Position numbers and translations under genes: made by a program. Positions 35,960 to 59,637 of a stretch of DNA of 64,000 bases are shown piece after piece; position 1 is the first letter of the stretch, and each line of letters begins with the position of its first letter. This DNA comes from Candidatus Omnitrophota bacterium. GTDB taxonomy: Bacteria; Omnitrophota; Gorgyraeia; Duberdicusellales; 4484-171. Location of the stretch: the NCBI GenBank assembly GCA_021735655.1, contig JAIPGM010000004.1:32001-96000 (forward strand). The letters are read 5' to 3'. The notes below the pieces were generated by a model. It was not told where the DNA came from, made no database searches, and worked only from the letters and a program-made list of their open reading frames with translations.

Positions 35960-35976
35960 CGCCAAGACTTAGCTTA

Positions 35977-37191: not shown

Positions 37192-37192
37192 C

Positions 37193-38914: not shown

Positions 38915-38915
38915 C

Positions 38916-40619
38916 TTATTTTAATGGTTCATCTGGCGCAGTAACTTTAAGTACTTCTTCTAAAGTAGTAATTCCTTTTTCGACTTTCAAAATTCCATCC
39001 TGGCGCAAAGTACGCATACCTAGGTTACGGGCTTTTTTCTTAATGATACTTTCTGAAGCCGAAGAGTTTACTAAATTTTTTATTTGTTGATCAACGTGCA
39101 GATACTCACAAAGGGCAACTCTTCCCTTATAGCCAGTATTCTGGCAATTTCTACAGCCTTTTGATTTATAAATTAAAACTTCTTTATTAATAAGATATCG
39201 CTCGCGAACCGAATCAGATAATTCAAATTCCTCTTTACACTTAGGACACAACATTCGCACTAAACGCTGAGTGAGCACCCCAACCAATGTCGAAGAAAGC
39301 AAAAATGGCTCAACTCCCATATTAATAAGACGAGTGATTGAACCTGCGCTGGTCGTAGTATGAAGTGTGGAAAGAACTAAGTGCCCGGTTAAAGCTGACT
39401 TTATGGCCATGTCAGCAGTGTCAGCATCTCTGACCTCACCGATCATTATTATGTCCGGATCCTGACGCAATATTGAACGTAAACAGGCAGAAAAAGTCAA
39501 ATGAATCGAAGGATTAATACTGGTTTGGTTGATCCCTTTTAATTGGTATTCTATCGGATCTTCTACGGTAACTATGTTCTTCTCCGGTGCGTAAACATGT
39601 TTAATCACCGAATAAAGGCTGGTGGTCTTACCGGCCCCAGTAGGACCACAAACCAAAAGAAGACCGTGAGACTTAAGACTATCTTCCCGTAACTGTTTTA
39701 AAACATCTTCTTCAAACCCCAAAAGATCCAAATTAAGTAAAGCAGTTGCCTTATCTAAAACTCTAATCGCGACTTTTTCTCCAACACTAGTAGGAAGAAC
39801 TGAAACTCGAAAATCAACATTTTTATTTGAAATTCTGCTCCGAAATCTTCCTTCTTGAGGCAAACGGTGTTCGGCAATGTTTAAATTACACATTACCTTT
39901 ATCCGTGATATAGCAAAAGGATGAATTTTTTTTGAAAAGGTATCGATTTCTTGCAAAATTCCGTCAATCCGAAATCGAATCCGACTTACGTTTTCTAAGG
40001 GTTCTATCAGAATATCTGAAGCGGCCTCTTCAACTGCCTTAGTTAAAAAAGAATTGGTAAACTTTATTACCGGAGCCTCTTCAATTGAACGGACGATTTC
40101 TTCTTGAGTTACTTCCTTTTTGACCTTTTTTACAAACTCTAAGCTTTCGGCATGCTGCCCCTTAATAATATCCTCAATCGAAACCATATGGACCTGAGAA
40201 TAATGCATTGAGATGGCTTCTTTTATTTCTGAAAGCGGGGCAATTATCGGATTTACTTCACACTTAGTAATTTTTTTAATATCGTCAATAACTAAAATAT
40301 CTAAAGGATCACCCATGGCCAAGGTTAAGGTGTTGCCAATCTTGCCGATTGGTAAAACCTTATGGTCTCGGGCGACTCTTTCCGGAACTAAAGATATGAT
40401 CTCCTTGGGAATATTAAGATTAAGGATTCGAACCGGTGGGATTGAAAGATAGCTAGATAGTAAATCGAGAAGATCTGGTTCTTTTATGTAGCCTAACTGC
40501 ATAAGCTGCTCAACTAAAGAACCGCCCTTCTCCTTGTGGACGACTAAGACTTTATCTAAATCCTGTTTAGTTAAAAGTCCTTTTTCTAATATGTAATCGG
40601 TAAATTTTTTACTCTTCAT
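38916..40619 (-). CDS. Second GspE/PilB-family secretion ATPase paralog with N-terminal T2SSE_N domain
   Basis: Walker A GPTGAGKTT, CPKC...CRNC; 567 aa. Its N-domain IGNTLTLAMGDPLD matches the one in the standalone ORF. Confidence 0.9.
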   Translation of the reverse strand: MKSKKFTDYILEKGLLTKQDLDKVLVVHKEKGGSLVEQLMQLGYIKEPDLLDLLSSYLSIPPVRILNLNIPKEIISLVPERVARDHKVLPIGKIGNTLTLAMGDPLDILVIDDIKKITKCEVNPIIAPLSEIKEAISMHYSQVHMVSIEDIIKGQHAESLEFVKKVKKEVTQEEIVRSIEEAPVIKFTNSFLTKAVEEAASDILIEPLENVSRIRFRIDGILQEIDTFSKKIHPFAISRIKVMCNLNIAEHRLPQEGRFRSRISNKNVDFRVSVLPTSVGEKVAIRVLDKATALLNLDLLGFEEDVLKQLREDSLKSHGLLLVCGPTGAGKTTSLYSVIKHVYAPEKNIVTVEDPIEYQLKGINQTSINPSIHLTFSACLRSILRQDPDIIMIGEVRDADTADMAIKSALTGHLVLSTLHTTTSAGSITRLINMGVEPFLLSSTLVGVLTQRLVRMLCPKCKEEFELSDSVRERYLINKEVLIYKSKGCRNCQNTGYKGRVALCEYLHVDQQIKNLVNSSASESIIKKKARNLGMRTLRQDGILKVEKGITTLEEVLKVTAPDEPLK

Positions 40620-41060
40620 TTAAGGGTAGAATCTACCTATACCACTACGTATGTCTGAAGGGGTACTAACAAATATTTGGATATCGCAATGGGTCAGGTC
40701 TTCTAAATCTTCAATGGCATGAATATTAAGAGGATTGGCCATAGCTAAAGTCAAAGTGTTCCCTATTTTATCTATTGGAAGTAAACAATAATGACCGCAA
40801 ACGTTTTTGGGGACTAAAGAAACTACCTCTTCGGAAACTTGATAGTTCTCTAAAGGAAGATAGGGATAACCAAACTGTAAAGACAAGCAATAGGCAATAT
40901 CTTCCTCTTTGGCAAAGCCTAAACTTACAATGACTTCACCGATTAAACCTCCTTGACGTTTCTGGCTTGTTATAGCTTCCTTCAGTTGATCGGGAGTAAT
41001 TACCCCTCTTTCTGCTAAAATCTGCCCCAAAGGCTTATCTATTTTTTTGTGAGATTTCAT
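40620..41060 (-). CDS. Standalone T2SSE_N / MshEN-type domain protein (predicted c-di-GMP-binding)
   Basis: 146 aa. PLGQILAERGVITPDQLKEAITSQ fits the MshEN motif RLGxxLLxxGxIxxxQLxxALxxQ. IGNTLTLAMANPLN is the shared N-domain block. Confidence 0.7.
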   Translation of the reverse strand: MKSHKKIDKPLGQILAERGVITPDQLKEAITSQKRQGGLIGEVIVSLGFAKEEDIAYCLSLQFGYPYLPLENYQVSEEVVSLVPKNVCGHYCLLPIDKIGNTLTLAMANPLNIHAIEDLEDLTHCDIQIFVSTPSDIRSGIGRFYP

Positions 41061-42380
41061 TTAATTATCTTGCTTATTTTTCTTAAGCTTGGTGAATTTA
41101 ATCAACTCTTTGGCAGTTGTCCCGTCCAATGGGCTTGCTGCCACCGAAAAAGAAAGCTTAACTTTTCCCTGAGTTATTACCTTAAGAGCGGCTTCTGCCT
41201 TCTTCGCTGCCTCTTGAGAATGACGCTTATTGCTTTCTATAATAATGGCACCTAAGGTTTGGGGGCCTATTCTTCCGGCGATATCAATCGGACGCAAACT
41301 TCTCTTAAAGCCATGGGCGATTTTTTTAAGTATCTTCTCAGATTCAATCAAACCAAATTCTTTCTGATATTTATCAGGATCTAACAAACTAACCGAGATA
41401 AAGCCACAGGGACGCTGATAAATGCTTGAGCGCCTTATTTCTTCATCAAGCCTTCTAATAATTACCTTTTCATTATATAGATCAGTCAAATCGTCAAGCA
41501 CCTCTAAATCTTCAATCTTTGAAGAAAGACGTCGATGCTCCCAAATAAGAGTTACATTTTGAGAAAATAGGTTCAAAACATCTATTTCGTCTTTGCTAAA
41601 ATTATACTCATCCTGATTATTGCCGACTCCGACGATACCAACAACTATGCCTTTAGCAACAACCGGGACTAAAGCCATATTCACAAGCCCCAATTCTTTA
41701 GCCCACCCCAGATAAGGCTTAGGTTTATTGCTAGAATCAACAACTGACAGCTTCATCCTCTGAGGTAAATCACTATTACGATTTTCAATAAAAGAATCGA
41801 TAATCGGTATTTCTACTCCTAAAAAGGAAATTGGTTTTAGCTTACTTTGAGCATCATCTTTTAAGCTACAAAAACAAACATTAGTTTCCAAAATCTTCTT
41901 TAAATGCTCACTTAAAAACTTAATAATCTCTTCAGCCGGAGCATCCTTAGAAAATAAATCATTGGCCTGTAGAATAGCTGAGAGGACAAGAACTTTCTTA
42001 GTGACCTCTCGGTTGAGTTCTTCGGTTTTTTGAGTAAAGTCTTTTAATTCTTCAAACCCGCTTTTAACTTTATCCGAAAGTACGTTAATAACTGTCTCTA
42101 GGCTCTGGACTTCATCTGAAATTTCTGGAGCCTGTTCGCCAATATCTTCTAAAGCAGTCTTTGATTGTGTATATAGTCTAATAATTGATGAAAAAACCTC
42201 AAAAACAACTCGCCATCCCAAAATTACAACTAATAATAATGTCGTAGCTGCAAAAAAAGATATCTGGTATCCGAATAAATAGTAAAGAAGCACAATCAAC
42301 GGAATGAGAGAAACCAAAGCAATCGAAATCCAAATCCTTCTGGCTAGACTTAAATTAGTTATTCTATTTTTTGTTTTCAC
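41061..42380 (-). CDS. Membrane-anchored GAF + degenerate GGDEF protein (PelD-like c-di-GMP receptor architecture)
   Basis: 2 N-terminal TM segments, a coiled segment, a GAF-like block, then a GGDEF fold where the A-site reads GRIGPQTL instead of GG(D/E)EF. The RxxD I-site (RPID) is retained 5 aa upstream. Confidence 0.6.
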   Translation of the reverse strand: MKTKNRITNLSLARRIWISIALVSLIPLIVLLYYLFGYQISFFAATTLLLVVILGWRVVFEVFSSIIRLYTQSKTALEDIGEQAPEISDEVQSLETVINVLSDKVKSGFEELKDFTQKTEELNREVTKKVLVLSAILQANDLFSKDAPAEEIIKFLSEHLKKILETNVCFCSLKDDAQSKLKPISFLGVEIPIIDSFIENRNSDLPQRMKLSVVDSSNKPKPYLGWAKELGLVNMALVPVVAKGIVVGIVGVGNNQDEYNFSKDEIDVLNLFSQNVTLIWEHRRLSSKIEDLEVLDDLTDLYNEKVIIRRLDEEIRRSSIYQRPCGFISVSLLDPDKYQKEFGLIESEKILKKIAHGFKRSLRPIDIAGRIGPQTLGAIIIESNKRHSQEAAKKAEAALKVITQGKVKLSFSVAASPLDGTTAKELIKFTKLKKNKQDN

Positions 42381-42662
42381 TCTGCCCCCTCTTATAATAA
42401 TATAGTATTTATACGCTTACTACAAAATACTAACACCTTTCATTGCTAGTGTCAACTCGACTGAACCGAAAACATATTATATTTACTGTAATTTTAGACA
42501 AAACCGCTAGTTTAATTCAACTAAAGTAAGCCCCCTTTGGCTTCATGATCTTACCTCAGTTAAGAGGATAAATATTCTGAGCATCCCTCCAAGAAATAAA
42601 CTGAGCATCGGCATCTAAGCCCAAGGGCTCTATTGCCAATATGTCATCTTTACTGTATTTAT

Positions 42663-43532
42663 CTATTCAATATCTTGCCAAGACACTGTCTCCGAAGATG
42701 AGAACCCCAAATTAGCTAAAGCTGCACTTATCAGGTCAGGGTCATAAGCTAAATCGACACTGCCCTTAATGGTAGTATCTATACCGGCGCCGCTTTCAGC
42801 AAGAACTGACCCGCTGATAGCAACATTACCGGTAATTGAAAGTTCCCCGATAACATAAATTATACCTTCAAAATTTTCAGTTCCCGACATGTGAACGTCC
42901 CCTTCTATGACTAAAATCCCGCTGCCCTGTAAATTTCCTGCCGTTGTCAAAGTTACCCCCGGAGAAACCTCAACCCAGGTTATGCCGTCAACCGGCTCAC
43001 CAAAAGTGCTTTCATCGTAAAGGTGCGTGGCCATATTCTTTACTGATTCTTTACTATTTGCAAACAAATCCGAAAAATTTAAAACCGCTTGTTCATTGAA
43101 CGAATCCTCAGGAGTAATGGTATATGCCTGGCCTTTAATTACTAAATCACCTGTTGTCTCAATCGCGTATTGGAACTTGGAGGAATCAGGAGGATCTACT
43201 CTTACAATTGCGCGTAAAGACTTTTCGATTGTTGCCCCGGAAGATAAAGTAACTGTGCCGGTTGAGTCGATCTGATAATACCAATTACCTAACGCTTCTG
43301 TGGTTGCCGCATAACAATAGTTACTTTTCATACATCCAGATGTATTGTCGGGTAGATTACCCTTGCTCATTGCAATACCAGCCTCGGCCAGCCAAAAAGC
43401 TTCGACAGCCCCTACATATCTTGTGGTAAGCTTGTTCTCATTTATAGTTTTTAAAAAAAGTGCTGTCGATAGCATAATCATAATCAACATCATTAAAAGA
43501 CTAAGGATTAAAACACCGCCTCTTTTATTCAT
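42663..43532 (-). CDS. PilX-like minor pilin / pilus assembly protein
   Basis: N-terminal MNKRGGVLILSLLMMLIMIM hydrophobic segment typical of the PilX N-terminus; 289 aa. Confidence 0.55.
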   Translation of the reverse strand: MNKRGGVLILSLLMMLIMIMLSTALFLKTINENKLTTRYVGAVEAFWLAEAGIAMSKGNLPDNTSGCMKSNYCYAATTEALGNWYYQIDSTGTVTLSSGATIEKSLRAIVRVDPPDSSKFQYAIETTGDLVIKGQAYTITPEDSFNEQAVLNFSDLFANSKESVKNMATHLYDESTFGEPVDGITWVEVSPGVTLTTAGNLQGSGILVIEGDVHMSGTENFEGIIYVIGELSITGNVAISGSVLAESGAGIDTTIKGSVDLAYDPDLISAALANLGFSSSETVSWQDIE

Positions 43533-44154
43533 TTCTTATTTTCACATCCAGTTCTAAGGTAATTGGAAGAAGGTCCCTCTCCCGAACCTGACTTTGGCCG
43601 GTGATCGCGACAACCATCCTCTTACTATTATTAAGATTATCTTTAAAATTATCCGTCGTTCTCGCGCCGCCAGTATCGATAGTATAAAAAGGCGGCTCTG
43701 TTATGCCTATAAACTCCCTGCTTTCTGTTGTATTGTTGCCGCTATCAATAACACTGCGCGTAATCTTACTTAAAGTATTATCGTAATCATACTCAATATA
43801 GTCCAGACTTAATATATAATTACCGGTAGTTGTATTTATCCCGTCAACCGTCCGAAATTTAATATACGAAGCAGAAGGGTTATTGTTGGCTATGTCCCAG
43901 CAAGGAGCCTGGCGGATATCTCTAACTATTAAATTCCCTATCGACCTTATCTTAGCCTGAAAATCTATTTTGGCAGTCATTACCGGAAAAACTGATTCTC
44001 CTGCTTGAAGAACTCTAACCACTGCAGTAGCAATAAGTGACAGCACCAGAGAAGCAATCAATATCTCCGTAAGGGTAAATGCTTTCTGCTTAGCGATGAA
44101 TGCATGTTGAGAGCTCAAAATATCTTGTTTTCTGCCTTTCAGACCAGCTAACAT
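43525..44154 (-). CDS. Minor (pseudo)pilin with prepilin-type N-terminus (PilW/PilV-like)
   Basis: QKAFTLTEILIASLVLSLIATAVV class-III leader; 209 aa. Confidence 0.65.
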   Translation of the reverse strand: MLAGLKGRKQDILSSQHAFIAKQKAFTLTEILIASLVLSLIATAVVRVLQAGESVFPVMTAKIDFQAKIRSIGNLIVRDIRQAPCWDIANNNPSASYIKFRTVDGINTTTGNYILSLDYIEYDYDNTLSKITRSVIDSGNNTTESREFIGITEPPFYTIDTGGARTTDNFKDNLNNSKRMVVAITGQSQVRERDLLPITLELDVKIRNE

Positions 44155-44497
44155 TTGCTATTACCTCCGTAAGCGACGTTTCTGTACCTGCCGCCTGAAC
44201 AGTAACATTCTCATCTATCAAATTATCAAACACCGGCGGAGAATAAACATCTATATCCCCATAAGATAAGGTCTTGATCTCCTCTAATACACATTGAGCA
44301 TCGTTAGCCGCAGCTACTAAGTTATTGCTTGATTCATTGAGAAAAGCGCAAGAAACAAAAGCCATAATCAACCCACTAGCAACTATCATTATAATAGCCG
44401 CAGCTATCATCACTTCCAATAGAGTAAACCCAGCCCGCTTAGAAAAACTCTTACGCATAGCTTTATTTATTTGGCCTTTTTCCTTAAAATTCCTCAT
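44090..44497 (-). CDS. Minor (pseudo)pilin with prepilin-type N-terminus (PilV/FimT-like)
   Basis: RAGFTLLEVMIAAAIIMIVASGL class-III leader; 135 aa. Confidence 0.65.
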   Translation of the reverse strand: MRNFKEKGQINKAMRKSFSKRAGFTLLEVMIAAAIIMIVASGLIMAFVSCAFLNESSNNLVAAANDAQCVLEEIKTLSYGDIDVYSPPVFDNLIDENVTVQAAGTETSLTEVIANVSWSERQKTRYFELSTCIHR

Positions 44498-45116: not shown

Positions 45117-46070
45117 TTACTCGTTAAAAACTCCCATCTTTCTGTAACGCTGTTGTCTAGAGCTTAGCAATTGCGGTACAGAGAGCTGAGTAAGTTCGTC
45201 TAAATTTTTATTAACTGCTTTTTTTAAATTACCGGCTGATGCTTCATACTCCCAATGAGCGCCACCCTCAACTTCAGGAATCACCCCATCAATGAGCCCC
45301 AAAGAAAGAAGCTCCGGAGCAGTAAGCTTTAAAACATCAGCTGCTTTTTCACGTTTAGATGCATCTTTCCAAAGAATTGCTGCGCAACCTTCAGGTGAAA
45401 TAACCGAATAATAAGAATACTCCATAACCAAAACCCTGTCTCCAACACCGATACCTAAAGCCCCGCCGCTTCCACCTTCGCCGATGACTACGACTAAAAT
45501 CGGCACTTTGAGCAAAAACATATCTCTAATATTTTCAGCAATTGCCTGAGCCTGGCCCCTCTCTTCGGCCCCTACTCCCGGGTAAGCTCCCGGAGTATCA
45601 ACTAAACAAAGAATTGGCATTGAAAAACGCTCAGCCAATTTCATCACCCGCATAGCTTTGCGATATCCTTCCGGATGAGCACAGCCAAAATTACGCTCAA
45701 TGTTTTCCTTGGTATCTTTACCCTTTTGATGCCCGATGATAGCAATTTTTCTATCATCCAGCTTAGCAAGACCTGAGATTAAAGCTAGATCATCACCATA
45801 AAGACGATCGCCACAAAGAGAAACAAAATCTTTAAAAATTAAATTTATATAATCAAGGGTGGTTGGCCGATTAGGATGACGGGCGATTTGAACTTTTTGC
45901 CAAGCCGATAGGCCAGAATAAACTTCTTTCTTCAAAGTTTGCAGCTTCTCTTCCAAATCGGAAATCTCAGAGTTAAGATCAACCGCCTTATCCTTGGAGA
46001 ACTTTCGTAACTCCTCAATTTTATTCTCTAGCTCAATAATTGGTTTTTCAAAATCCCAAGTCTGCATCAT
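45117..46070 (-). CDS. accA: Acetyl-CoA carboxylase carboxyltransferase alpha subunit
   Basis: 317 aa; GGSGGALGIGVGD, PEGCAAILWKD blocks. Confidence 0.9.
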   Translation of the reverse strand: MMQTWDFEKPIIELENKIEELRKFSKDKAVDLNSEISDLEEKLQTLKKEVYSGLSAWQKVQIARHPNRPTTLDYINLIFKDFVSLCGDRLYGDDLALISGLAKLDDRKIAIIGHQKGKDTKENIERNFGCAHPEGYRKAMRVMKLAERFSMPILCLVDTPGAYPGVGAEERGQAQAIAENIRDMFLLKVPILVVVIGEGGSGGALGIGVGDRVLVMEYSYYSVISPEGCAAILWKDASKREKAADVLKLTAPELLSLGLIDGVIPEVEGGAHWEYEASAGNLKKAVNKNLDELTQLSVPQLLSSRQQRYRKMGVFNE

Positions 46071-46075
46071 AATAT

Positions 46076-46906
46076 CTAATCAATGATTAACACTTCGGTT
46101 CCTATCGGAACAATATCAAAAAGTTCCTCAACCTCTTGATTCCTCATCCGTATGCAGCCCAAGGTAATCTGTTTACCTAATTCTTGAGGTTTGGTTGTTC
46201 CATGAATGCCGTACCCTTTTATATCTTCTCCGTTTGCATCTTTACCCTCTAAACCCATCCAACGAGAACCCAAAATATTTTCTGGATCTGCAGGATCAAC
46301 GATAGCCCCGGTCCTAAACCAAGTAGGATTTCTAAGCTTATTCCGATCGATAGTAAACTTACCTACCGGAGTTGAGTTATCCTTCCCCGTAGAAACAATA
46401 TAGGTTTTTACTACTTCACCTTTTCGTTTTAAAAAAAGTAAATTTTGCGACTTATCAACTACTATCGAAAATTCACAAGAAGCTACCTTTAACTTTTGCT
46501 TAGGACGAATCGTATCCGACGACAAATTATTAGAACGTTTAATTAGACTTACCGTGGTTTTAAATTTCTTGGAAATTTTTGTTAGAGTATCCTTGGGTTG
46601 AACAACATAGGTAGTGCTGCACTGATCAAGATCTTTTGAAAAAATAATTCTTATATTGATATCTTCAATCTTCTGGCGAATACTATTGATTAGGTTAGGA
46701 TCATCGACATTTTCTAAACTTTCCTGATACAACCTCTTGGCCTCTTTGAACGATCCAACCGAAAAAGCTGATTCAGCTTCCTTTAAAACTGCCGATTTAA
46801 AAATAGTTTTTTTAGGTATGGTTGATTTTTTTGAAGATAGGGCTATAAGCGTAAAAATTATCACCATACTGATACTGACAATAATAACTATGTGAATTTT
46901 CTTCAT
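46076..46906 (-). CDS. L,D-transpeptidase (YkuD) with LysM domain
   Basis: LysM (YVVQPKDTLTKISKKF...), YkuD catalytic HGT...LGCIRM. Confidence 0.8.
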   Translation of the reverse strand: MKKIHIVIIVSISMVIIFTLIALSSKKSTIPKKTIFKSAVLKEAESAFSVGSFKEAKRLYQESLENVDDPNLINSIRQKIEDINIRIIFSKDLDQCSTTYVVQPKDTLTKISKKFKTTVSLIKRSNNLSSDTIRPKQKLKVASCEFSIVVDKSQNLLFLKRKGEVVKTYIVSTGKDNSTPVGKFTIDRNKLRNPTWFRTGAIVDPADPENILGSRWMGLEGKDANGEDIKGYGIHGTTKPQELGKQITLGCIRMRNQEVEELFDIVPIGTEVLIID

Positions 46907-46928
46907 TAAGCCTTTCCTTTTATTTTAA

Positions 46929-47378
46929 TTATCGGTAAAAGAAAAGAGTTACTACTATGCCGACTATGGCCCCGATAAAAACTTCTATCGGAGTATGACC
47001 AACAAGTTCTCGCAAACGAGATTCTCCAATCTTCTTTCCTTCCTGAAAATCCTCAACCATTCGATTAAGCACTTTTGCCTGGAAGCCTATCGAACGCCGC
47101 CAAGTTTGGGCATCAAACATATTAATCACCGCGAACAAAACACTCATCGCAAAAAGAATAGATCCGGTTCCAGCCTCTTTGGCCACGCAAACAACCAAAG
47201 AAACCACTGCGGCACTATGAGCTGATGGCATGCCGCCAGTACCCATAACCCAAAAAAAGTTAAACTTCTTATCTTTTATGAGCCCGGTAAAAATCTTTAA
47301 AACTTGGGCTACGAAAATTGTGGTTACAATAGCCCAAAAAGCCCTATTTCTATATATTCCTTCCCAAAACCCCTGCAT
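46929..47378 (-). CDS. Divergent PAP2-like membrane phosphatase (DUF212 family)
   Basis: 149 aa, 4 TM, GGMPSAHSA motif. Confidence 0.55.
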   Translation of the reverse strand: MQGFWEGIYRNRAFWAIVTTIFVAQVLKIFTGLIKDKKFNFFWVMGTGGMPSAHSAAVVSLVVCVAKEAGTGSILFAMSVLFAVINMFDAQTWRRSIGFQAKVLNRMVEDFQEGKKIGESRLRELVGHTPIEVFIGAIVGIVVTLFFYR

Positions 47379-47588
47379 ATAGGCCTTATTATAAAAAGAA
47401 AAGGTGATTTAAGCAACAACTATTTAGTCCATCTTCAAATTGCAATATCTACCCATGGAAATCTCTTAAAAAATCTAATCTGCTCTGCTTCTAAAGCGCT
47501 CTCTGGGTTAGCCCGAGCTTTAGGGTTTCCTTTTGCTCCATTTATCAAAACATAAAAATCTGTATCAGCGGCTATCGCGGCTCTGGTT

Positions 47589-48491
47589 TTAAATTCCAAA
47601 ATAAATTACTAAAATGCAAACTATACACCAGAGGGCCAAATTAAGCTGCAACTTTAAGTCAGCAAAAAGTATTCGCGTAGGATCTCCGTGTTTAAAGCGT
47701 TGATGAATTATGTAAAGATAACGAAATATACCATAATATACAAACGGCAGGCTGTACATAAGATGATTACTTCCAAATGCATTAATAGTCCTTGTGTCTA
47801 CTGTATAAAGCATATAGATAACTACCATCGAAGACGTCAGCACCGCTATCATTTGATCTATAAAGTATACGCTATATTTAGACAAAACCTTCCGGTGTAA
47901 AACAGCCTTTTTTTGCAAAATTATCAGCTCCTGACGCCTTTTAATAAATCCCAAAAATAATGCCAGCAAAACCGTCATTAATATAATCCAATGTGACATT
48001 TCAATTCCGGTAGCCACGCTGCCGGCTATTATTCGCAAAAGGAAAAACCCACCAACACAAAAAACATCGACAATAACAAAGTTTTTAAGCACCTTTGTAT
48101 AAATTAAATTAAACAACAGATAAATAAGCATAACCAAACCCAAATATCTGTTCAAAACAAAAGCTAGGCCAATAGACAAAAAAGATAAAATAATTGCCGC
48201 TATCAACGCGTTGGCGATGCTTAGCTTACCGGAAGCAATTGGCCGAAATTTCTTTAAGGGATGAACCCGATCATTCCTTACGTCAATTAAATCATTAAAC
48301 AGATAAACCGCACCCGATGTCATTGAAAACAAAACCATAGCGATTACGGCATCAAGATTAGCAGGATAAGAAAAAAGCTTCTTTCCGAAAATTAAAGGCA
48401 AAAGTATAAAAGAATTCTTAATCCATTGCCTTGGTCTTATAGAATATAAAAAGTTTTTCATTAAACTAAAGTTTCCATTACAATTAACCAC
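47589..48491 (-). CDS. UbiA-family prenyltransferase, decaprenyl-phosphate phosphoribosyltransferase (DPPR synthase)-like
   Basis: NDLIDVRNDRVHPLKKFRPIASG matches the NDxxDxxxD...RP(I/L)ASG block of DPPR synthases; 300 aa, polytopic. Confidence 0.7.
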   Translation of the reverse strand: MVNCNGNFSLMKNFLYSIRPRQWIKNSFILLPLIFGKKLFSYPANLDAVIAMVLFSMTSGAVYLFNDLIDVRNDRVHPLKKFRPIASGKLSIANALIAAIILSFLSIGLAFVLNRYLGLVMLIYLLFNLIYTKVLKNFVIVDVFCVGGFFLLRIIAGSVATGIEMSHWIILMTVLLALFLGFIKRRQELIILQKKAVLHRKVLSKYSVYFIDQMIAVLTSSMVVIYMLYTVDTRTINAFGSNHLMYSLPFVYYGIFRYLYIIHQRFKHGDPTRILFADLKLQLNLALWCIVCILVIYFGI

Positions 48492-48544
48492 CTATCAGGT
48501 TGACGGAAAAGTACCTGTCCAAGCTATTAACTGTTTCTAAATTA

Positions 48545-49183
48545 TTATTCGGCTTCTTCGATGGAAAATAACTGAAAATGTTGTGGGCAAATAAAAGTAG
48601 TGTCAAAATCAGAAGTTCCTTTATAAAAAACGGCCTTATCTACAAAATTACTTAAATCCCCAACCTGTGAAATATCTAGCCTGGCACACCCTCTTAGCTT
48701 TCGACCATTAAATACTATCGTATTTCCTTTGCTCGCCTTCAGACAATAACAAGCTCCACAAGCCCTGCTGCCAGCCCGGTAGTTACATCTAGTTATAACG
48801 CCTTCACCCTTCTGAATAACTACTTCTGGCTGATCAGACTCTTCTTCTGAATCATCAATGTCTAGTTTGTTTTGAAAAGAACCCTTTTTTAACTCTCGGA
48901 GCTTACCAAAAAGCTCCTGAGTTGCCTTTTTATCTCTAAAGCAATCTTTCGGGCAACTTTCTGCCGTTTCGCAACAAGTAAATCCGCGAGAACCACAGCC
49001 TTTATCTTGACAAAATCCATCACCGCAACGATCAGTACATCTATCTAAAGGCTCATCATTAGCCTTCCCCTCTATGCCCGGCAGACCAGTTTCGATATCT
49101 ACAACTCTACCTTCAGAAAAAACATTCTGAAAGACAAAAAATGAAAATACCATAATTGAAATACTTATAGTTACTGGTTTCAT
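48545..49183 (-). CDS. Secreted cysteine-rich hypothetical protein (two Cys-rich modules separated by an acidic linker)
   Basis: Signal peptide; CTDRCGDGFCQDKGCGSRGFTCCETAESCPKDC, then DIDDSEEESD, then CNYRAGSRACGACYC...C...C. Confidence 0.4.
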   Translation of the reverse strand: MKPVTISISIMVFSFFVFQNVFSEGRVVDIETGLPGIEGKANDEPLDRCTDRCGDGFCQDKGCGSRGFTCCETAESCPKDCFRDKKATQELFGKLRELKKGSFQNKLDIDDSEEESDQPEVVIQKGEGVITRCNYRAGSRACGACYCLKASKGNTIVFNGRKLRGCARLDISQVGDLSNFVDKAVFYKGTSDFDTTFICPQHFQLFSIEEAE

Positions 49184-49193
49184 TTATTTGCCT

Positions 49194-49697
49194 CTACATC
49201 TTGGTAAAATTAACATCTTTGTCTTTCTTTTGTCTGTCAGTAATTTCTTTTTCCTCTTCCTCCTTGTCTACCACTCTCCTAAAAGACCCTTCTGAGGAAG
49301 ACCCTCCTCCAATTAGGATATTTTTTTCGGCATAGCCTTCAACAAGTTCAGCAAGCCGATCTCCTAATAATTTTCTTACACTCTTTAACTTCCGTTCATA
49401 GTAAACAATTAGCTTCTCCCCTTCCCCGGAAGCTTTCTCGTTAGCTTTCTTTATTTCTTCCTGGCTAGGTAAATCTTTATCTTCAGAAATAAAATTACTG
49501 ATTTCTTGCCAACGCTTAAGCAAGGAGCTGTCTTCTGAATTCTTTGCTTTCTCCACCTCTTCTTTTAGGTCTTTCTCTAGCTCTTTTGAAATCTCTAATG
49601 AAGTCTGGTTCTTTGTCTGATCTCCTCTTATCTCATCCAGTCGCAACTGGACTAAGCGGTACTCATCGACTAAACATTTTAAACGGTCTTTTCTCAT
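49194..49697 (-). CDS. Hypothetical charged/coiled-coil cytoplasmic protein
   Basis: 167 aa, very K/E-rich, with a GGGSSSEGS linker. Confidence 0.35.
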   Translation of the reverse strand: MRKDRLKCLVDEYRLVQLRLDEIRGDQTKNQTSLEISKELEKDLKEEVEKAKNSEDSSLLKRWQEISNFISEDKDLPSQEEIKKANEKASGEGEKLIVYYERKLKSVRKLLGDRLAELVEGYAEKNILIGGGSSSEGSFRRVVDKEEEEKEITDRQKKDKDVNFTKM

Positions 49698-49705
49698 AAT
49701 CCCTC

Positions 49706-50521
49706 CTAATTATTAATAAAATACTTATCGTACATATCTCGATAAAAATTAAAATAACTCTCTCTGCCAAACATCATATATCCATATTCTAAATCAGTTG
49801 GTGCTGTGGCATAACCGGCAAAAAGTGATTTTGAACTGGTCTTAAACCGATGCTTAATAGCCCAGGGCTGCCAAACCCGATAATAAAATTCCTTTGTCTT
49901 CTTAACTGCTTCAAATTCTACCTTGGCAATTTGCATAACAAACTCTTCTTTAGTAATTTTTCTATCTGCGGCTTTTTCAAAAATATCATTAAACTCATCT
50001 TTGTTGTTAATATTAATTAATTCAAATATAGCACAAGCCCACAGATCTTCAAAGGAAAGATCTCTGCCAATACTTTTCCGATTATGAGCCGTCTCTTTTG
50101 TATAAATTATATTTATACTAATAGATCCTCTGCGACCGGTTTGATTACGATTTACAGCTAACCAACCCTGAGGAGGATATTTGGGGTTCCAATCGACTAA
50201 CTCTCTAGAATCTTGACCAGCATATTTTCTAACTACCCACTGCCAAATAGAGTCTTCCTCGCTGACCGATCTTAGAAAATGGAACCTATTAACATACTTG
50301 GACATCCCCGGCCTGTCTTTAAGCATTTTTCGAATTTGTTGCTTCCCGTGGCGGATAGCCCGCTCCGATAAGTTTGTCCCTGAATATCGTGGGTCACTTC
50401 CGTATATTAGCCGATCCTCGAAAAGCACAAGATCAATCTTCAAATAAAGAAAAATTGCCCCTAAAACAAGAAAGCTGGCTATTATAAAAATTTTCCTCTG
50501 AGAAAAACCTTTAAAAACCAT
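49706..50521 (-). CDS. Hypothetical N-terminally membrane-anchored protein
   Basis: TM FIIASFLVLGAIFLYL then a 240-aa soluble domain with no recognisable motif. Confidence 0.4.
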   Translation of the reverse strand: MVFKGFSQRKIFIIASFLVLGAIFLYLKIDLVLFEDRLIYGSDPRYSGTNLSERAIRHGKQQIRKMLKDRPGMSKYVNRFHFLRSVSEEDSIWQWVVRKYAGQDSRELVDWNPKYPPQGWLAVNRNQTGRRGSISINIIYTKETAHNRKSIGRDLSFEDLWACAIFELININNKDEFNDIFEKAADRKITKEEFVMQIAKVEFEAVKKTKEFYYRVWQPWAIKHRFKTSSKSLFAGYATAPTDLEYGYMMFGRESYFNFYRDMYDKYFINN

Positions 50522-51108: not shown

Positions 51109-51378
51109 CTACCCAACAAAAAGAGATATTAAGCTGCCAATAAACACAATTACTCCCATGAACATCGTGAATTTACCTACTTTTACAGACTTAAATACTT
51201 TAATTGTCTTATTAGGTGACTCTTTATTAAGTTTCATGCCTTGGATAACAAAGTAAATTGCAGCTATTAACATACCGATATTTGCTATCTTATTTGTAAT
51301 CTTACCATACACACATGCCATAATTACACCAATAATGACAAAAACAATCATTACGACAACTAAACTTTTCTTTTCCAT
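51109..51378 (-). CDS. Small 2-3 TM membrane protein
   Basis: 89 aa hydrophobic. Confidence 0.35.
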   Translation of the reverse strand: MEKKSLVVVMIVFVIIGVIMACVYGKITNKIANIGMLIAAIYFVIQGMKLNKESPNKTIKVFKSVKVGKFTMFMGVIVFIGSLISLFVG

Positions 51379-51421: not shown

Positions 51422-51495
51422 TGGCGGCGAGTGGACTTGAACCACCGACAAAACGGGTATGAGCCGTTTGCTCTACCAGCCTGAGCTACGCCGCC
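51422..51495 (-). tRNA. tRNA-Met (anticodon CAT; elongator-type, could alternatively be the Ile2 lysidine isoacceptor)
   Basis: Reverse complement GGCGGCGTAGCTCAGGCTGGTAGAGCAAACGGCTCATACCCGTTTTGTCGGTGGTTCAAGTCCACTCGCCGCCA folds as a cloverleaf (7-bp acceptor, GCTC/GAGC D-stem, AACGG/CCGTT anticodon stem, CAT, T-loop TTCAAGT). CCA not encoded. Confidence 0.85.
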
Positions 51496-51530: not shown

Positions 51531-52559
51531 TTAGAATCTTTTAATAAATTCTATTTTTTCAATCACTGTTCCATCATTAGTACTAATTTTAAAATCATCA
51601 AGCGAACCATTGTTAGTAACATTATTTATCCGAAGGCGATAATATATTGGCTCGTCTCTTCTTTTTATCATTCGAAATTTTTCTTGCGGTACTACCCCCC
51701 TATAAAGAGTAACTCCAGTTATCGGACCATTAGCATAAACATGAATTTCCAAATTAATTTCCAACTGAGGGAATCCTTCTTCTTTGAGAAAAAATTCAGG
51801 AGCTTGCGGATAAACGATTAGCTTCGTTTTTCTTCCCTCAAGGTCTATCTCCGCTCTTTTTACATTTTTTATCTTTTTGCTAATCTTCTGCGCGGCTTGA
51901 TACCTAGATACTTTATCTTTTTGATAGTGGAAAAATGAAATTAAATTTATAAATGCTGTCTTCTCTTGATTCTCCGAAAAATAATACTTAGCCAAACATA
52001 AATAAATAATCGGATTTTCTGGTTGAGTCTGGGCTGCTTTAATTAACTCTGATTCCAAGCCCTTAATTAAATAATATTCAAAAAGATAAGAATAAGTATT
52101 CGGATCTTTGGAATATAGTTGGGTTGCCTTAATTAATTCAGATTTAGCCCTTTCATCGCCTTCGATTGTATAAAACCGACCCAACCTTAAGTGATAATCA
52201 AAATTGGTCGGGTTCAACCTTATTGCTTTCTTGTAAAGACTCTCTATTTGGACCTTATCGATAGAAAGCTCATCAGCCAACCCCTCTTCCTTGGCCTCTA
52301 ATAGATAGTCCCCTTTTTTTGCATAATAGTCAGCTTTATCAGGACTTATTTTTATGGCTTTAAATACTGATTTTAAAACCTTGCGGTAATAACTTAAACT
52401 AGCCGCATTTAAATCTGGTTTCTGAAAAGTAGAAAGATTTTCGTAAATGCAATTTGCTCTATAATTAGAACTGATATAAAAAGTGAGGTAGATTAATAAA
52501 AAAATGCTTCCTATAAAAAAAATATATTTTTCTTTCCGATCAAAAACCTTTTCTTTCAT
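51531..52559 (-). CDS. N-terminally anchored TPR-like repeat protein
   Basis: TM segment then repeated A..YY/LG..Y helical motifs. Confidence 0.45.
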   Translation of the reverse strand: MKEKVFDRKEKYIFFIGSIFLLIYLTFYISSNYRANCIYENLSTFQKPDLNAASLSYYRKVLKSVFKAIKISPDKADYYAKKGDYLLEAKEEGLADELSIDKVQIESLYKKAIRLNPTNFDYHLRLGRFYTIEGDERAKSELIKATQLYSKDPNTYSYLFEYYLIKGLESELIKAAQTQPENPIIYLCLAKYYFSENQEKTAFINLISFFHYQKDKVSRYQAAQKISKKIKNVKRAEIDLEGRKTKLIVYPQAPEFFLKEEGFPQLEINLEIHVYANGPITGVTLYRGVVPQEKFRMIKRRDEPIYYRLRINNVTNNGSLDDFKISTNDGTVIEKIEFIKRF

Positions 52560-53882
52560 TTAAGTTCTATTCTTATTAGTCACATGGTGATTAAACTGAG
52601 TATTAACGCACTTATAAATTAAAGCCAAAATTAGCCAAAATAGGAATGTCGTCGCTGGAATATGAAAATTAAACTCAAAAAAGCTATGCAACAAAACCCC
52701 AATGAGACCGCAGGCGCCGCTTAAGGTAATTATCTTTACAAAACTGTCCTGCCTTTGACTAATCTTTTTTAAAATGCTTTTAAAAATCGTAACTATAAAC
52801 CCCAGATAAAAAAAAGCTCCGATAAGTCCGGTTTCAACAACCATCTGGAGATGGTCGTTATGAAGATGGTAAAAAAATTTACTCCATGCGAATTCTTGAT
52901 AGTAGGGAAAAATATATGAAAAATTTCCTAGACCTATACCGAATAAAGGAAAATCTTTTATAATAGCCAAAGAATTAGCCGCTATCTTAAGACGACCCAA
53001 AAATCCCTCTTCAATCATAATAAATCGCGCTTTTATTGGGGCTAAGCCTGGAATTAGAACTAATCCCAAACCGAAAATTAATACCAAGGGAATAATCCAG
53101 CCGCTACTCTTTATTAAAAATTTTCGTTTAGAAAATATCCCCATCAATAACAAGGAAAAAATTAAACTCAGCGATCCGGCTCGCGAAAGAGAAATAAATA
53201 CACTGGCTGAAATCAAAACTGCTAGGAATCCAAAAATAATTTTTTTAGCCTTGTCTCGGTAATACAAAGCATGGCCGACAGCCAAAGGCGCAACCATAAC
53301 CATATAGCCGGCAAAATGGTTACGATTACCGAAAGTGCTAAAAGCACCAGTTATCTCAGCATTAATTATAAAATACTTTTTTATGACCCCATAAAATGAA
53401 AGAATCGCTCCCCAAATGATTATCGTTAAAAACAGACGCTCGAATTGAGAGCGTTTCTTTATAGTATTAAGTGTAACCAAAAATAAAATCAAAAATGATA
53501 ACAGATTTATGCTTTCTGCTTTAGTTGCTGCTCTATAAAAAGATAACGATAAAAATCCCGACTGACTATCAAGCGGCATATAGTTATGCTTAAAAAAATA
53601 GGTTTTTGATGAAATAAATTTTATTGCAGCTTGTGGAAGCGGTAAAATCTGGAAAATAACAATAGCGATAAAAACAACTAAAAGATAGGTCTGCCGCGGA
53701 TAAACAATTTGCAACTGACCAGGAAAACTCCTCGCCAGATATAAAGCTAAAATAACTAGTATAGTTATCTGAACGACAAAAAGAAATGTTCCTTTAACTG
53801 AACCGTAACCGAGGGGAACAAAAACTATAAGAAAAACCAAGATAGCTTCAAATAGCCAATCCGGAATTACTTTTTTTATCAT
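52560..53882 (-). CDS. Wzy_C-family polytopic membrane protein (O-antigen ligase/polymerase-like; could also be an O-oligosaccharyltransferase)
   Basis: 440 aa, about 10-12 TM segments, with a periplasmic loop containing NDHLQMVVETG (the H-containing Wzy_C loop). Confidence 0.6.
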   Translation of the reverse strand: MIKKVIPDWLFEAILVFLIVFVPLGYGSVKGTFLFVVQITILVILALYLARSFPGQLQIVYPRQTYLLVVFIAIVIFQILPLPQAAIKFISSKTYFFKHNYMPLDSQSGFLSLSFYRAATKAESINLLSFLILFLVTLNTIKKRSQFERLFLTIIIWGAILSFYGVIKKYFIINAEITGAFSTFGNRNHFAGYMVMVAPLAVGHALYYRDKAKKIIFGFLAVLISASVFISLSRAGSLSLIFSLLLMGIFSKRKFLIKSSGWIIPLVLIFGLGLVLIPGLAPIKARFIMIEEGFLGRLKIAANSLAIIKDFPLFGIGLGNFSYIFPYYQEFAWSKFFYHLHNDHLQMVVETGLIGAFFYLGFIVTIFKSILKKISQRQDSFVKIITLSGACGLIGVLLHSFFEFNFHIPATTFLFWLILALIYKCVNTQFNHHVTNKNRT

Positions 53883-55720
53883 TTTTTAGTTTCCGGGGAG
53901 TAAGAATAATGATAAAAATAGTAACCACCCTTACTTTGCTCAATACCATTCAAAACAGCGCCGATAATTTTTGTTTTATTGCCTAATATTTTCCTAGCTT
54001 CAGCTATATGCTTAAGTGGAGTAACTCCGGCTCGAATCACAAAAACTAACCCATCGCATTTATCCGCTAAAAGAATAGCCTCAGATACACTCAAAACCGG
54101 GGTGGAATCAATAATAACTCTTTTATACTTTTTCTCTACCTCGCGCAATATATCTTTTAAAGTGGCTGAGCCCAAAAGCTCTGTGGGGTTAGGCGTGTAA
54201 TGACCACAACCAATAAAATCAAGATTCGGGACATCAGTTGACACTATTACTTCCTCTAAAGAAGCTACGCCAGCCAGCAGGCTACTTAAGCCAATTTCGG
54301 AAGAAGGACTAAAAGATTTCGCTAAGTGCCCCTTGCGCATATCAGCATCGATAAGTAAAGTTGAGTCGCCGGTTTGTGCAAAAGCTATTGCTAAATTAGC
54401 AGAAGTAAAACTTTTTCCCTCCTGCGGAATAGTACTACCAATGACTATAGTTCGTAGAGGCTTATCCTCCGGAAAAGAAAAAATTAAGGCTGTTCTTAAA
54501 TTCTTAAAGTTTTCAGCAACTATAGAAAAAGGCTGGGTGTGAGACAATAAATTTAGTTTTTCTCGGGTTTGCTCTTCCTTTGCCAAGTTGATTGCTCCAA
54601 GAAAGGGGAGCTTAGCGTAAAATTCTACATCGTCCGATGTCTTCAAGGTAGAATCGGTATATTCTAGAAAAAAACAAAAAGATAAGCTTAGAAAAATGCT
54701 CATCGCTAAAGCTAGAATGATATCCCGCTTCGGCCGAGGCCAAACCGGAGACAAAGGAACATCAGCTTCATCAACTATGCGTATATTAGAAATAGAAAGT
54801 TCTTTAGAAACATCTAATTCCTTAGCCCGCTGCAGAAGGTTTTCATATATCGATTTATTCGAATCTACTCTTCGTTTAAGAATTCTGTACTCAGCCGAAA
54901 TATCTTGAATGGCCATGAATTTTTCAGTCTCACTTTTAATCGTTAAAATAACCGTATTTAGCTCCTCATTCAAAGCAAGTATTTCAGGATGTTTTCCTTT
55001 GTATTTCTTAGATAAGGAAGCCACTTCATTTTCCAAGTCAGATTTTTGTTTTTCGAGGTCACGCAAAATACTTTTATCATACTCTTTCTCCATGTCTGGA
55101 ATATTAACGATCTTATTTTTACGAACAAAATTATTTAACTCTTTGTCCGATTGTTGTATTTTCTTTAATGCTTCTTCAAGCTGTCCTTCCAACCAAGAAA
55201 CACCATATTTGGCAATCCCAGTCCTTCTTTCTATATCCTGATAAATAAATTCCCTAGCCCAAGTGTTAGCGATACTGGTTATTTTTAAACGGTCCCTACC
55301 GGTAACCGTAATGATAACTAAATTGCTCATCCGCTCAGGCTTAACATCAACCCAAGACAAAAGAACTCTAGCCGGATTTCTCTTCCCGCCAATTTCAGGA
55401 TCATTAGCAAGATCCAACTTATCAATAACCCGTTCAGCCAAAGAAAGTGATTTCAACAAACCATACTGGCTATAATAATACTCTCTATCTCTGACTTCGC
55501 CCTGATAAGCATACCCACCCTTTTCAGACATAATCTGCGGGTTTTGCTTTTCAATATGCATTGTCATCTCTGCCCGATATTTTTTAGGTTGAGTGAAATC
55601 ATAAAAAGCAACTAGGCTTACGGTTATCAAGATAAAAGACACAACTAACCATTTACGCTTCAAAAAAATTTCCCAATAATCCTTAATGCCTAACACTTTT
55701 ACTTCTGCGGGTGGTATCAT
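53879..55720 (-). CDS. Polysaccharide co-polymerase / BY-kinase (Wzc/EpsG-like)
   Basis: Wzz-like N-terminal domain with 2 TM and coiled coil. C-terminal P-loop GSTIPQEGKSFTSANLA and DADMRKG. Confidence 0.8.
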   Translation of the reverse strand: MIPPAEVKVLGIKDYWEIFLKRKWLVVSFILITVSLVAFYDFTQPKKYRAEMTMHIEKQNPQIMSEKGGYAYQGEVRDREYYYSQYGLLKSLSLAERVIDKLDLANDPEIGGKRNPARVLLSWVDVKPERMSNLVIITVTGRDRLKITSIANTWAREFIYQDIERRTGIAKYGVSWLEGQLEEALKKIQQSDKELNNFVRKNKIVNIPDMEKEYDKSILRDLEKQKSDLENEVASLSKKYKGKHPEILALNEELNTVILTIKSETEKFMAIQDISAEYRILKRRVDSNKSIYENLLQRAKELDVSKELSISNIRIVDEADVPLSPVWPRPKRDIILALAMSIFLSLSFCFFLEYTDSTLKTSDDVEFYAKLPFLGAINLAKEEQTREKLNLLSHTQPFSIVAENFKNLRTALIFSFPEDKPLRTIVIGSTIPQEGKSFTSANLAIAFAQTGDSTLLIDADMRKGHLAKSFSPSSEIGLSSLLAGVASLEEVIVSTDVPNLDFIGCGHYTPNPTELLGSATLKDILREVEKKYKRVIIDSTPVLSVSEAILLADKCDGLVFVIRAGVTPLKHIAEARKILGNKTKIIGAVLNGIEQSKGGYYFYHYSYSPETKK

Positions 55721-55721
55721 T

Positions 55722-56954: not shown

Positions 56955-56961
56955 AACCTTA

Positions 56962-57372
56962 TTAATGCCTTTCTCCCTCTCTAATATTCTTGCCTCGAGC
57001 CTTATAACTATTTACAATGCTATTATTAATAAACTCTTTCGCCTTCTCATCAATATTGACAAATTCGGTTGCAAGATCATATCCACCCATTTTCTTCAAA
57101 GCCCTGCTTCTTAAAACTTTAGCCACGACTTTAATTGAATCAACCCGTGGCGGAAAATTTATCTCTATTTCTACTATGTTGTTAACCGGAATATTTTCCT
57201 TGGCATGGAAGAGAACCCCGCCAGCACTTATATCTCTGGCAAAAGACAACTTTGACTGGCCATCAATGCTTTTATATTTCAATAAACAGTGCACTCGAAT
57301 CCTAGCAAAATTTCTATTTCTCTTCTTAAAAAATTTACTGGCCAATCTTGAAAAAAACAGCGACTTCATCAC
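56962..57372 (-). CDS. PilZ-domain c-di-GMP-binding protein
   Basis: RNFARIRV (RxxxR) and DISAGGVLF (DxSxGG) motifs; 136 aa. Confidence 0.65.
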   Translation of the reverse strand: MMKSLFFSRLASKFFKKRNRNFARIRVHCLLKYKSIDGQSKLSFARDISAGGVLFHAKENIPVNNIVEIEINFPPRVDSIKVVAKVLRSRALKKMGGYDLATEFVNIDEKAKEFINNSIVNSYKARGKNIREGERH

Positions 57373-59133: not shown

Positions 59134-59155
59134 TAAGTCTTAGTGTAGCAAAATA

Positions 59156-59572
59156 TTAGACATTGTCAACGAAATAGGCCTTTCGTTTCATTAAATAAAT
59201 TATTATTAATATATTAATTACTATACCTAAAACAACAATTAAATTTTCACCATTATGTCTAGTTGCCCTTAGGCCTTCTATTTTTAAAAACGCCGTCTTC
59301 TGATTGGCAATAAGAATGCCATTAATTAGAAAAATAATATGCAAAAACAAAGCAGCCACAAAGCCGCTTTTTTTAGCTTCCCTCATTGCTAAATAAAGAA
59401 ACCAAAATAAAATAAGAAAGTTAAAATGAATGATTTTGGCCAAAAAAGGGCTAACCGCTACTCCAAAAATCACCAGTTGGGTAGAAAAGACGAAAAGAGG
59501 TAGCCCGTAAAGGATACTTAAGCAGAGATAAAAATAACCGATGGTTCTTATTCCTAACTTCCTGTCTACCAA
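59156..59572 (-). CDS. Small 4-TM membrane protein
   Basis: 138 aa hydrophobic. Confidence 0.35.
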   Translation of the reverse strand: MVDRKLGIRTIGYFYLCLSILYGLPLFVFSTQLVIFGVAVSPFLAKIIHFNFLILFWFLYLAMREAKKSGFVAALFLHIIFLINGILIANQKTAFLKIEGLRATRHNGENLIVVLGIVINILIIIYLMKRKAYFVDNV

Positions 59573-59637
59573 TAAGTTACCTCCTTGACAATGGTCCTAA
59601 CTAATGTTATACTTAAATTGAAGGAGAAAAGGACAAT

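Follow-up and report, generated by a model that had tools for sequence, protein, structure and literature searches.

The gene at positions 47589-48461 of the window (the whole stretch of DNA analyzed, 64 kb from a Candidatus Omnitrophota MAG) is, on sequence grounds, well supported as a member of the polyprenyl-phosphate 5-phosphoribosyltransferase (PPPRS, or DPPR-synthase) family of the UbiA superfamily, of the Rv3806c type. It is probably an orphan donor enzyme for a cell-surface pentose that was inserted recently beside a housekeeping gene of the DUF212 family. Neither is DUF212 a partner dedicated to PPPRS, nor is the pairing of the two genes conserved. The features of this locus are as follows:

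47428..48544, minus strand: lineage-specific segment of ~1.1 kb bearing the PPPRS gene, delimited by synteny with the related loci L046, L048 and L050
47589..48461, minus strand: PPPRS/DPPR-synthase family gene, 290 aa, assigned from the NF008977 model, the alignment with 8j8j and the contact residues
47379..47427, minus strand: upstream element conserved ahead of the DUF212 gene, hardly varying among the window, L050, L046 and L048
46929..47378, minus strand: DUF212/divergent-PAP2 membrane protein, ATG start, 149 aa, ~4 TM helices; putative lipid-phosphate phosphatase
46076-46906, minus strand: LysM-YkuD L,D-transpeptidase (Pfam), conserved partner of DUF212
45117-46070, minus strand: AccA (Pfam), conserved partner of DUF212

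Family assignment of the UbiA-type gene

The two ORFs described in an earlier, sequence-only reading of this DNA are both present, on the minus strand. The mechanically delimited ORF of the UbiA-type gene spans 47589..48491 and opens with a GTG at 48491 (300 aa), but translation almost certainly begins at the ATG at 48461, since 290 aa is the length of nearly all homologs as well as of the identical NCBI protein. That NCBI protein, 100% identical to the 290-aa product, is named decaprenyl-phosphate phosphoribosyltransferase; the enzyme identity is thus not new, and the protein is an ordinary member of its family. The Pfam match of the ORF is at the superfamily level only (UbiA, PF01040, 1.3e-22). 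The NDxxDxxxD...RPIASG block, which the sequence-only reading had singled out, is found within the ORF as FNDLIDVRNDRVHPLKKFRPIASG.

The protein passes the curated cutoff of NF008977, the NCBIfam equivalog model for decaprenyl-phosphate phosphoribosyltransferase (265.7 bits, cutoff 234), as well as that of the second family model, NF008978 (210.5, cutoff 207), and falls below the cutoff of NF006088, the model for the fused type (190, cutoff 351). The NCBIfam models for quinone, heme, chlorophyll and archaeal-lipid enzymes (heme O synthase, 4-hydroxybenzoate prenyltransferase, chlorophyll synthase, DGGGP synthase and EboC) yield 17-48 bits against cutoffs of 180-350, the top scores outside the PPPRS family being 48.4 (cutoff 269), 38.5 (210), 34.8 (296) and 25.9 (275). 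No MenA model produced a match at E <= 0.01 in the NCBIfam search.

When compared with all PDB sequences, the protein matched M. tuberculosis Rv3806c (8j8j) best, with an E-value of 1.4e-38; residues 5-288 align with residues 18-301 of 8j8j, so that the two are collinear end to end. The second match was DGGGP synthase, at 8e-5. In Rv3806c, Mg2+ is bound by N73 and D77, the ribose is contacted by Q135, the 5-phosphate by K28, Y70 and Y157, and the pyrophosphate by a cluster consisting of R22, K87, R90, K143, Y138 and K208 (PMC10994848). With these residue numbers transferred through a HMMER alignment, 10 of the 12 experimentally important PRPP/Mg2+ contacts are identical in the window protein (R22, K28, Y70, N73, D77, K87, R90, Y138, K143 and K208), which thus keeps both Mg2+ ligands, two of the 5-phosphate contacts (K28 and Y70) and the K/R cluster around the pyrophosphate. 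The other two, Q135 to N and Y157 to F, are conservative changes, and the latter is also present in some mycobacteria (PMC10994848). The gene is under purifying selection, with a dN/dS of 0.145 relative to its ortholog in L050 (80% amino acid identity).

These results bear out the DPPR-synthase-like label given in the sequence-only reading. A MenA- or ubiquinone-type placement, the outcome that the same reading had regarded as contrary to its own, does not occur, the respective models being either far below their cutoffs or unmatched. It is hardly conceivable that this is an aromatic or lipid prenyltransferase of a conventional kind, such as MenA, UbiA, heme O synthase or DGGGP synthase. The protein shares with these enzymes the superfamily and the NDxxDxxxD motif, but not the model scores, and prenyltransferases in the PDB match it at E-values no better than 8e-5. 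The protein keeps the K/R cluster that stands where prenyltransferases have their second Asp-rich motif, and no genes of the quinone or heme O pathways were found by Pfam adjoining the UbiA-type gene.

The window protein belongs to the same curated-HMM family as Rv3806c and PsPA7_6246 of P. aeruginosa, with full-length alignment and collinearity of the 9-TM UbiA fold. As with these two, the enzyme stands alone, and no phosphatase is fused to it. Unlike theirs, its gene is not flanked by genes for a classical PAP2 protein, DprE1/E2, a GtrA/SMR flippase or a GT-C of the Emb/Aft/TfpW type.

The DUF212 neighbor and its genomic linkage

The downstream neighbor passes the gathering cutoff of PF02681 (DUF212/YuiD, 'Divergent PAP2 family', 5.2e-42) and reaches only 17 bits, against a cutoff of 27.2, with the classical PAP2 model PF01569; no NCBIfam model matched it. 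It therefore represents a family different from that of Rv3807c, which we take to be a classical PAP2 (PF01569) protein. In 25 Omnitrophota homologs of the neighbor (56-91% identity), K28, GGMPSxH54, FDAQTWRRSIG and GH128xPxEV are invariant. An AlphaFold model built from the alignment of these homologs has a pLDDT of 80. None of its Foldseek matches is significant; PAP2 enzymes nevertheless make up most of those at the top of the ranking, with PgpB, LpxE and LPP1 as the best structural matches. Thus, of the earlier description of the neighbor as a PAP2-type phosphatase, the predicted model upholds the PAP2 part at the level of the fold, and membership in the classical PAP2 family does not stand.

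Compared with lipid phosphatases of the PgpB/LpxE type, the neighbor has a minimal 4-TM core. The active sites of PgpB and LpxE are periplasmic. By contrast, the motif site of DUF212 is predicted to face the cytoplasm by the positive-inside rule, because the two motif-bearing loops carry 11 K/R and the opposite side carries 3. Literature searches for DUF212, YuiD and PF02681 found nothing on function and no characterized member.

Rv3807c and PsPA7_6245, the PAP2 5-phosphoribose phosphatases, resemble the neighbor in being small polytopic membrane proteins of the PAP2 fold superfamily. Unlike them, DUF212 belongs to PF02681 rather than PF01569, is not consistently linked to PPPRS, and has an L,D-transpeptidase and AccA as its partners. 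The UbiA-type and DUF212 genes lie on the same strand and do not abut, being separated by 210 nt. On the synthase side, we collected 39 PPPRS loci with 10-kb flanks from GTDB species representatives (homologs with 28-61% identity); none contains DUF212, by tblastn even at an E-value of 10, and neither does any of seven further contexts of close PPPRS homologs (L040-L045 and L049), so that the linkage is found in 0 of 46 other PPPRS loci. On the DUF212 side, 80 metagenomic loci (46-79% identity) were fetched, and none of the 49 with more than 1.5 kb of upstream sequence encodes a UbiA/PPPRS homolog. The gene for the LysM-YkuD L,D-transpeptidase directly follows DUF212 in 45 of 49 loci with downstream sequence, and AccA lies within 2.5 kb in 34 of 34. 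DUF212 accordingly belongs to a fixed block of DUF212, L,D-transpeptidase and AccA, and is a strongly conserved housekeeping gene in Omnitrophota. Besides the window, PPPRS was observed next to DUF212 in a single locus, that of the nearest relative, L050.

The lineage-specific segment upstream of the DUF212 gene

The PPPRS gene lies on a segment located between the gene for a conserved 212-aa protein and the DUF212 upstream element. The locus L046, with a DUF212 protein 79% identical to that of the window, is collinear with the window at 56-87% amino acid identity, in the order Wzy_C, TPR, cupin, three unannotated proteins, DUF212, L,D-transpeptidase, AccA, PadR and pseudopilins. There, the homolog of the 212-aa protein is followed, after 85 nt, by DUF212, and the UbiA-type gene is absent. 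L048 has a similar neighborhood, also without the segment. The closest relative, L050 (UbiA-type protein 80%, DUF212 91% identical), has the UbiA-type gene, a gap of 234 nt, and then DUF212 and the L,D-transpeptidase.

In an alignment of the window with L050, L046 and L048, the 49 nt preceding the ATG of DUF212 hardly vary, with or without a UbiA-type gene upstream. They comprise TTGCTT (47416-47411), a 17-nt spacer, TATAAT (47393-47388) and 9 nt (AAGGCCTAT) before the ATG, and are a candidate for the gene's own promoter and/or ribosome-binding region. A scan of the coding strand for promoter and terminator consensus sequences made no call, and the -35 hexamer of the element fits the consensus at only 3 of 6 positions. 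Beyond this element, the rest of the gap between the two genes is unique to the window; the 210-nt gap gave no significant structured RNA on folding (z 0.49) and no Rfam match.

The simplest reading, since the syntenic relatives share the neighborhood without the UbiA-type gene, is a recent insertion of the ~1.1-kb segment in front of a housekeeping gene, which kept expression signals of its own. We also considered loss of the gene in the relatives instead of gain here. Because L046 and L048 lack the gene and only L050 has it, a single gain is more parsimonious than repeated losses.

The sequence-only reading had likened the two genes to the mycobacterial Rv3806c/Rv3807c pair. In the comparisons made here, this analogy fails because the phosphatase families differ, the linkage is not conserved on either side (0 of 46 and 0 of 49 loci), and DUF212 has an independent conserved upstream element; in addition, the syntenic relatives do without the UbiA-type gene. 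The case cautions against reading a one-off gene adjacency as an operon of the Rv3806c/Rv3807c kind.

It could still be that, in this lineage, DUF212 acts as the 5-phosphatase, turning polyprenyl-P-ribose-5-P into polyprenyl-P-ribose, and forms a working two-step unit with PPPRS. The two genes are adjacent on the same strand and have been kept together in L050, no HAD phosphatase domain is fused to the window PPPRS, and DUF212 combines a predicted PAP2 lipid-phosphatase fold with invariant PSxH and GH motifs and a site predicted to face the cytoplasm (11 versus 3 K/R), where the substrate is made. Moreover, the known systems draw their phosphatases from unrelated families: in Citrobacter the phosphatase is a HAD domain fused to the synthase, and in mycobacteria and Pseudomonas it is a protein of its own, unrelated to that domain (PMC11127046). 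We nevertheless regard such a unit as unlikely, given the absence of linkage from all the other loci on both sides, the presence of DUF212 at the same site in relatives without the UbiA-type gene, and the 210-nt gap with the separate upstream element. To our knowledge, DUF212 also occurs in organisms without Rv3806c homologs, for example, as YuiD in B. subtilis. Furthermore, according to the literature, loss of the Rv3807c homolog in P. aeruginosa Pa5196 only reduces pilin glycosylation, so a dedicated phosphatase is dispensable there and not strictly required.

A broader version of the same idea, and a rather improbable one, is that DUF212 proteins are cytoplasm-facing lipid phosphatases, and that, in this Omnitrophota lineage, a stand-alone PPPRS was captured beside one of them, which came to serve as the missing polyprenyl-P-ribose-5-P phosphatase. 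If true, this would provide the first substrate for the very widespread, uncharacterized DUF212 family, which is also represented in Firmicutes, cyanobacteria and plant plastids. Independently of the PPPRS gene, the near-universal linkage to the L,D-transpeptidase and AccA, the PAP2 fold and the predicted cytoplasmic active site offer leads for this large family without a known function.

Partners and proposed role of the phosphoribosyltransferase

Pfam scans covered most window ORFs with 120 aa or more, and every one longer than ~250 aa. The regions and genes that bear on possible partners are the following:

1-22000: housekeeping metabolism genes (Pfam)
27247-44497: type IV pilus cluster (Pfam)
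32657-35203: STT3/PglB-type GT-C enzyme (STT3 family), next to the pilin gene
35328-35777: pilin gene, next to the STT3-family transferase
~51.5 kb to the end of the window: c-di-GMP-linked polysaccharide cluster of the Wzy/Wzz type (Pfam)

The polysaccharide cluster begins ~3 kb upstream of the PPPRS gene and encodes TPR, Wzy_C, a Wzz/GNVR kinase, porin, PilZ, TPR, GGDEF, two Bac_transf proteins and GT1. A contig from a read assembly, recognized by an identical Bac_transf protein, extends 9 kb beyond the window, where it encodes seven Leloir glycosyltransferases and another Wzy_C. In the 64-kb window and these 9 kb, no PMT-type GT-C (PMT, PMT_2 or DUF2079), GtrA or MATE flippase, epimerase or DprE1/DprE2-like protein was found. 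Relaxed Pfam scans of the small polytopic ORFs at 59156-59572, 51109-51378 and 22870-24003 revealed no GtrA- or SMR-like flippase and no GT-C, and tblastn of the GT-C, DprE1-like and SDR neighbors from related loci against the window returned no partner. No HAD-PRP or classical PAP2 gene was detected in the window by Pfam, and the DUF212 neighbor is the only PAP2-fold gene in view near the stand-alone PPPRS.

Elsewhere, the usual neighbors of PPPRS are GT-C, DprE1-like and SDR epimerase genes. Among 113 immediate neighbors in the GTDB loci, the most common Pfam families are FAD_binding_4 (8), SDR (5) and PMT_2 (4), with Amino_oxidase and NAD_binding_8 also represented four times each. Of the 39 loci, 8 have a DprE1-like gene directly downstream of PPPRS, and a ninth, L023, has one upstream on the opposite strand; the loci with an adjoining DprE1-like gene include L002 and L003, whose PPPRS is 51% identical to that of the window. 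A PMT_2 gene directly follows PPPRS in L043; a PMT, PMT_2 or DUF2079 gene is found within two genes of it in L044, L040 and L005; and SDR epimerase genes adjoin it in L001 and L045. In L001, PPPRS shares 4 nt with a gene that resembles PMT_2 weakly, below the threshold, and the GT-C, PPPRS and epimerase genes are located directly upstream of homologs of the window's Bac_transf, GGDEF (58% identity), TPR, PilZ and porin genes. An STT3 homolog was found in none of the 46 PPPRS loci.

The last observation bears on the pilus. The sequence-only reading had proposed a lipid-linked sugar donor for the glycosylation of either the pilus or the cell surface, and had pointed to D-arabinose and to the pilin and oligosaccharyltransferase genes about 12 kb away. 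A general donor of cell-surface pentose remains the best reading of the UbiA-type gene taken by itself; the pilus part, including the link to these genes, is unsupported, and so is the D-arabinose part, no DprE1/DprE2-like gene having been found in the window or the 9 kb beyond. In full, the pilus proposal would have PPPRS feed a D-arabinofuranose pathway for pilin glycosylation by the STT3-family transferase 12 kb away, as for the group IV pilins of P. aeruginosa, where PPPRS and DprE1/E2 supply the pilin Araf and the sugar and pilin clusters are likewise unlinked. The pilin gene does sit beside an STT3/PglB-type GT-C within a type IV pilus cluster, and a DprE1-like gene adjoins PPPRS in the two relatives at 51% identity. 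Against this, bacterial STT3/PglB enzymes use diphosphate-linked oligosaccharides as donors, no STT3 homolog accompanies PPPRS in the 46 other loci, and the PPPRS gene seems to have been inserted recently into a block that, in the relatives, keeps the pilus genes without it. We consider this route highly improbable.

In the three-component model of pentofuranose addition, a PPPRS, a flippase and a GT-C act together, with epimerases as optional additions (Kelly et al. 2024; PMC11127046). The window protein is the same type of first enzyme as in the Citrobacter youngae system of ORF15, ORF14 and ORF12 (PMC11127046), and close Omnitrophota homologs adjoin GT-C and SDR epimerase genes within polysaccharide clusters, as that system would predict. 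Unlike its Citrobacter counterpart, the window protein consists of the UbiA domain only, without the HAD phosphoribose-phosphatase (290 aa versus ~480), and the MATE flippase and the GT-C were not found in the window, where PPPRS lies apart from the genes that usually accompany it. A PPPRS that stands alone depends on some 5-phosphatase; that the DUF212 neighbor is the only PAP2-fold gene in view counts against an orphan enzyme, as does the failure to find a PMT-type GT-C, a flippase or an epimerase in the window and the 9 kb beyond it.

Under the reading that we prefer, that of an orphan donor enzyme, the lipid, the sugar, the glycan target and the enzyme that removes the 5-phosphate are inferred. 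The product of 47589-48461 would be a functional membrane phosphoribosyltransferase, using PRPP to modify a polyprenyl phosphate, with a lipid that is probably C55-P, not decaprenyl-P. The 5-phosphate would then be removed by a presumed phosphatase, and the resulting polyprenyl-P-ribofuranose would be flipped across the membrane, possibly after epimerization by enzymes not found in the window. A GT-C encoded elsewhere in the genome would transfer the pentofuranose onto a glycan of the cell surface. Given the gene order in L001, the likeliest target would be the product of the Wzy/Wzz-type polysaccharide cluster, a connection drawn from this one related genome.

A literature search combining Omnitrophota with decaprenyl found nothing. 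The PPPRS genes described here suggest that lipid-linked pentofuranose donors based on this enzyme extend into the candidate phylum Omnitrophota, where their genes usually lie beside a GT-C gene in polysaccharide clusters, as predicted by the three-component model.

The DUF212 gene block and adjoining genes

DUF212 (PF02681, divergent PAP2), the neighbour of the polyprenyl-phosphate 5-phosphoribosyltransferase (PPPRS) gene, lies in a block traced through the window, L046 and L048, syntenic relatives without the PPPRS gene, and the metagenomic loci L052-L131.

45117-47378: DUF212, LysM-YkuD L,D-transpeptidase and AccA genes
47379-47427, minus strand: TATAAT and TTGCTT element upstream of the DUF212 ATG
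48545-50521, minus strand: three consecutive genes (L046 counterpart, 3985-5915)

Among Omnitrophota metagenome contigs, the LysM-YkuD gene comes after DUF212 in 45 of 49 loci and AccA in all 34 of 34, with PadR as a frequent next gene. The great stability of the block is a hint that the uncharacterised DUF212 family may have a role tied to envelope lipids or peptidoglycan.

The perfect TATAAT ends just 9 nt from the DUF212 ATG, with TTGCTT 17 nt further upstream, and this element is kept across relatives. As read from the sequence, the DUF212 transcript could be leaderless or carry a very short leader; alternatively, AAGG between TATAAT and the ATG could serve as the ribosome-binding site.

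The products of the three consecutive genes (271, 167 and 212 aa) had no Pfam or NCBIfam matches. All three are kept in L046, at 56-64% identity, and are rare to absent in the remaining 80 loci with DUF212. The 212-aa product is rich in Cys and has a hydrophobic segment at its N-terminus.

PPPRS loci in relatives

L040 3513-12426 and L044 240-13166: glycan clusters with a PPPRS gene, in related Omnitrophota
L045 8001-12602 and L049 294-2129: PPPRS, HTH_17 and NusG paralogue

Each glycan cluster of L040 and L044 encodes three to four B12-binding radical SAM enzymes, interspersed with GT-C and Leloir transferases, which suggests unusual glycan modifications. In two other relatives, L045 and L049, genes for an HTH_17 protein and a paralogue of NusG lie just downstream of PPPRS, an arrangement reminiscent of the NusG-like antiterminators that head polysaccharide operons.

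The polysaccharide cluster

51422-51495, minus strand: tRNA gene (Rfam RF00005, 63.8 bits), between a cupin gene and the polysaccharide cluster
51531-64000, continued in read-assembly contig L051, 1-10000: large polysaccharide cluster running beyond the window end
59156-59572, minus strand: small unannotated ORF (positional counterpart in PPPRS locus L001, 15613-15939)

Besides two Bac_transf genes, the cluster encodes two Wzy_C proteins, a Wzz/GNVR tyrosine-kinase-like protein, a beta-barrel porin, PilZ and GGDEF proteins and no fewer than eight Leloir glycosyltransferases. Both the window and L001 carry a small ORF flanked by the GGDEF and TPR genes (138 aa with four predicted hydrophobic segments, and 108 aa, respectively), paired by position and neither with a family match; it is possibly a small transporter or flippase.

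The pilus cluster

32657-35777, minus strand: STT3/PglB-family oligosaccharyltransferase and type IV pilin-like genes
37193-41060, minus strand: two PilB/MshE-type ATPases, MshEN protein and GAF-GGDEF protein

The pilin-oligosaccharyltransferase unit of the sequence-only reading consists of the STT3/PglB gene (848 aa, 11 hydrophobic segments, PF02516 at 2.4e-37) and the pilin-like gene directly upstream, both within a complete pilus cluster. The tandem ATPases each contain an MshEN domain, and upstream of them are encoded a stand-alone MshEN-domain protein (146 aa) and a GAF-GGDEF protein; together, these suggest that the pilus is under c-di-GMP control.
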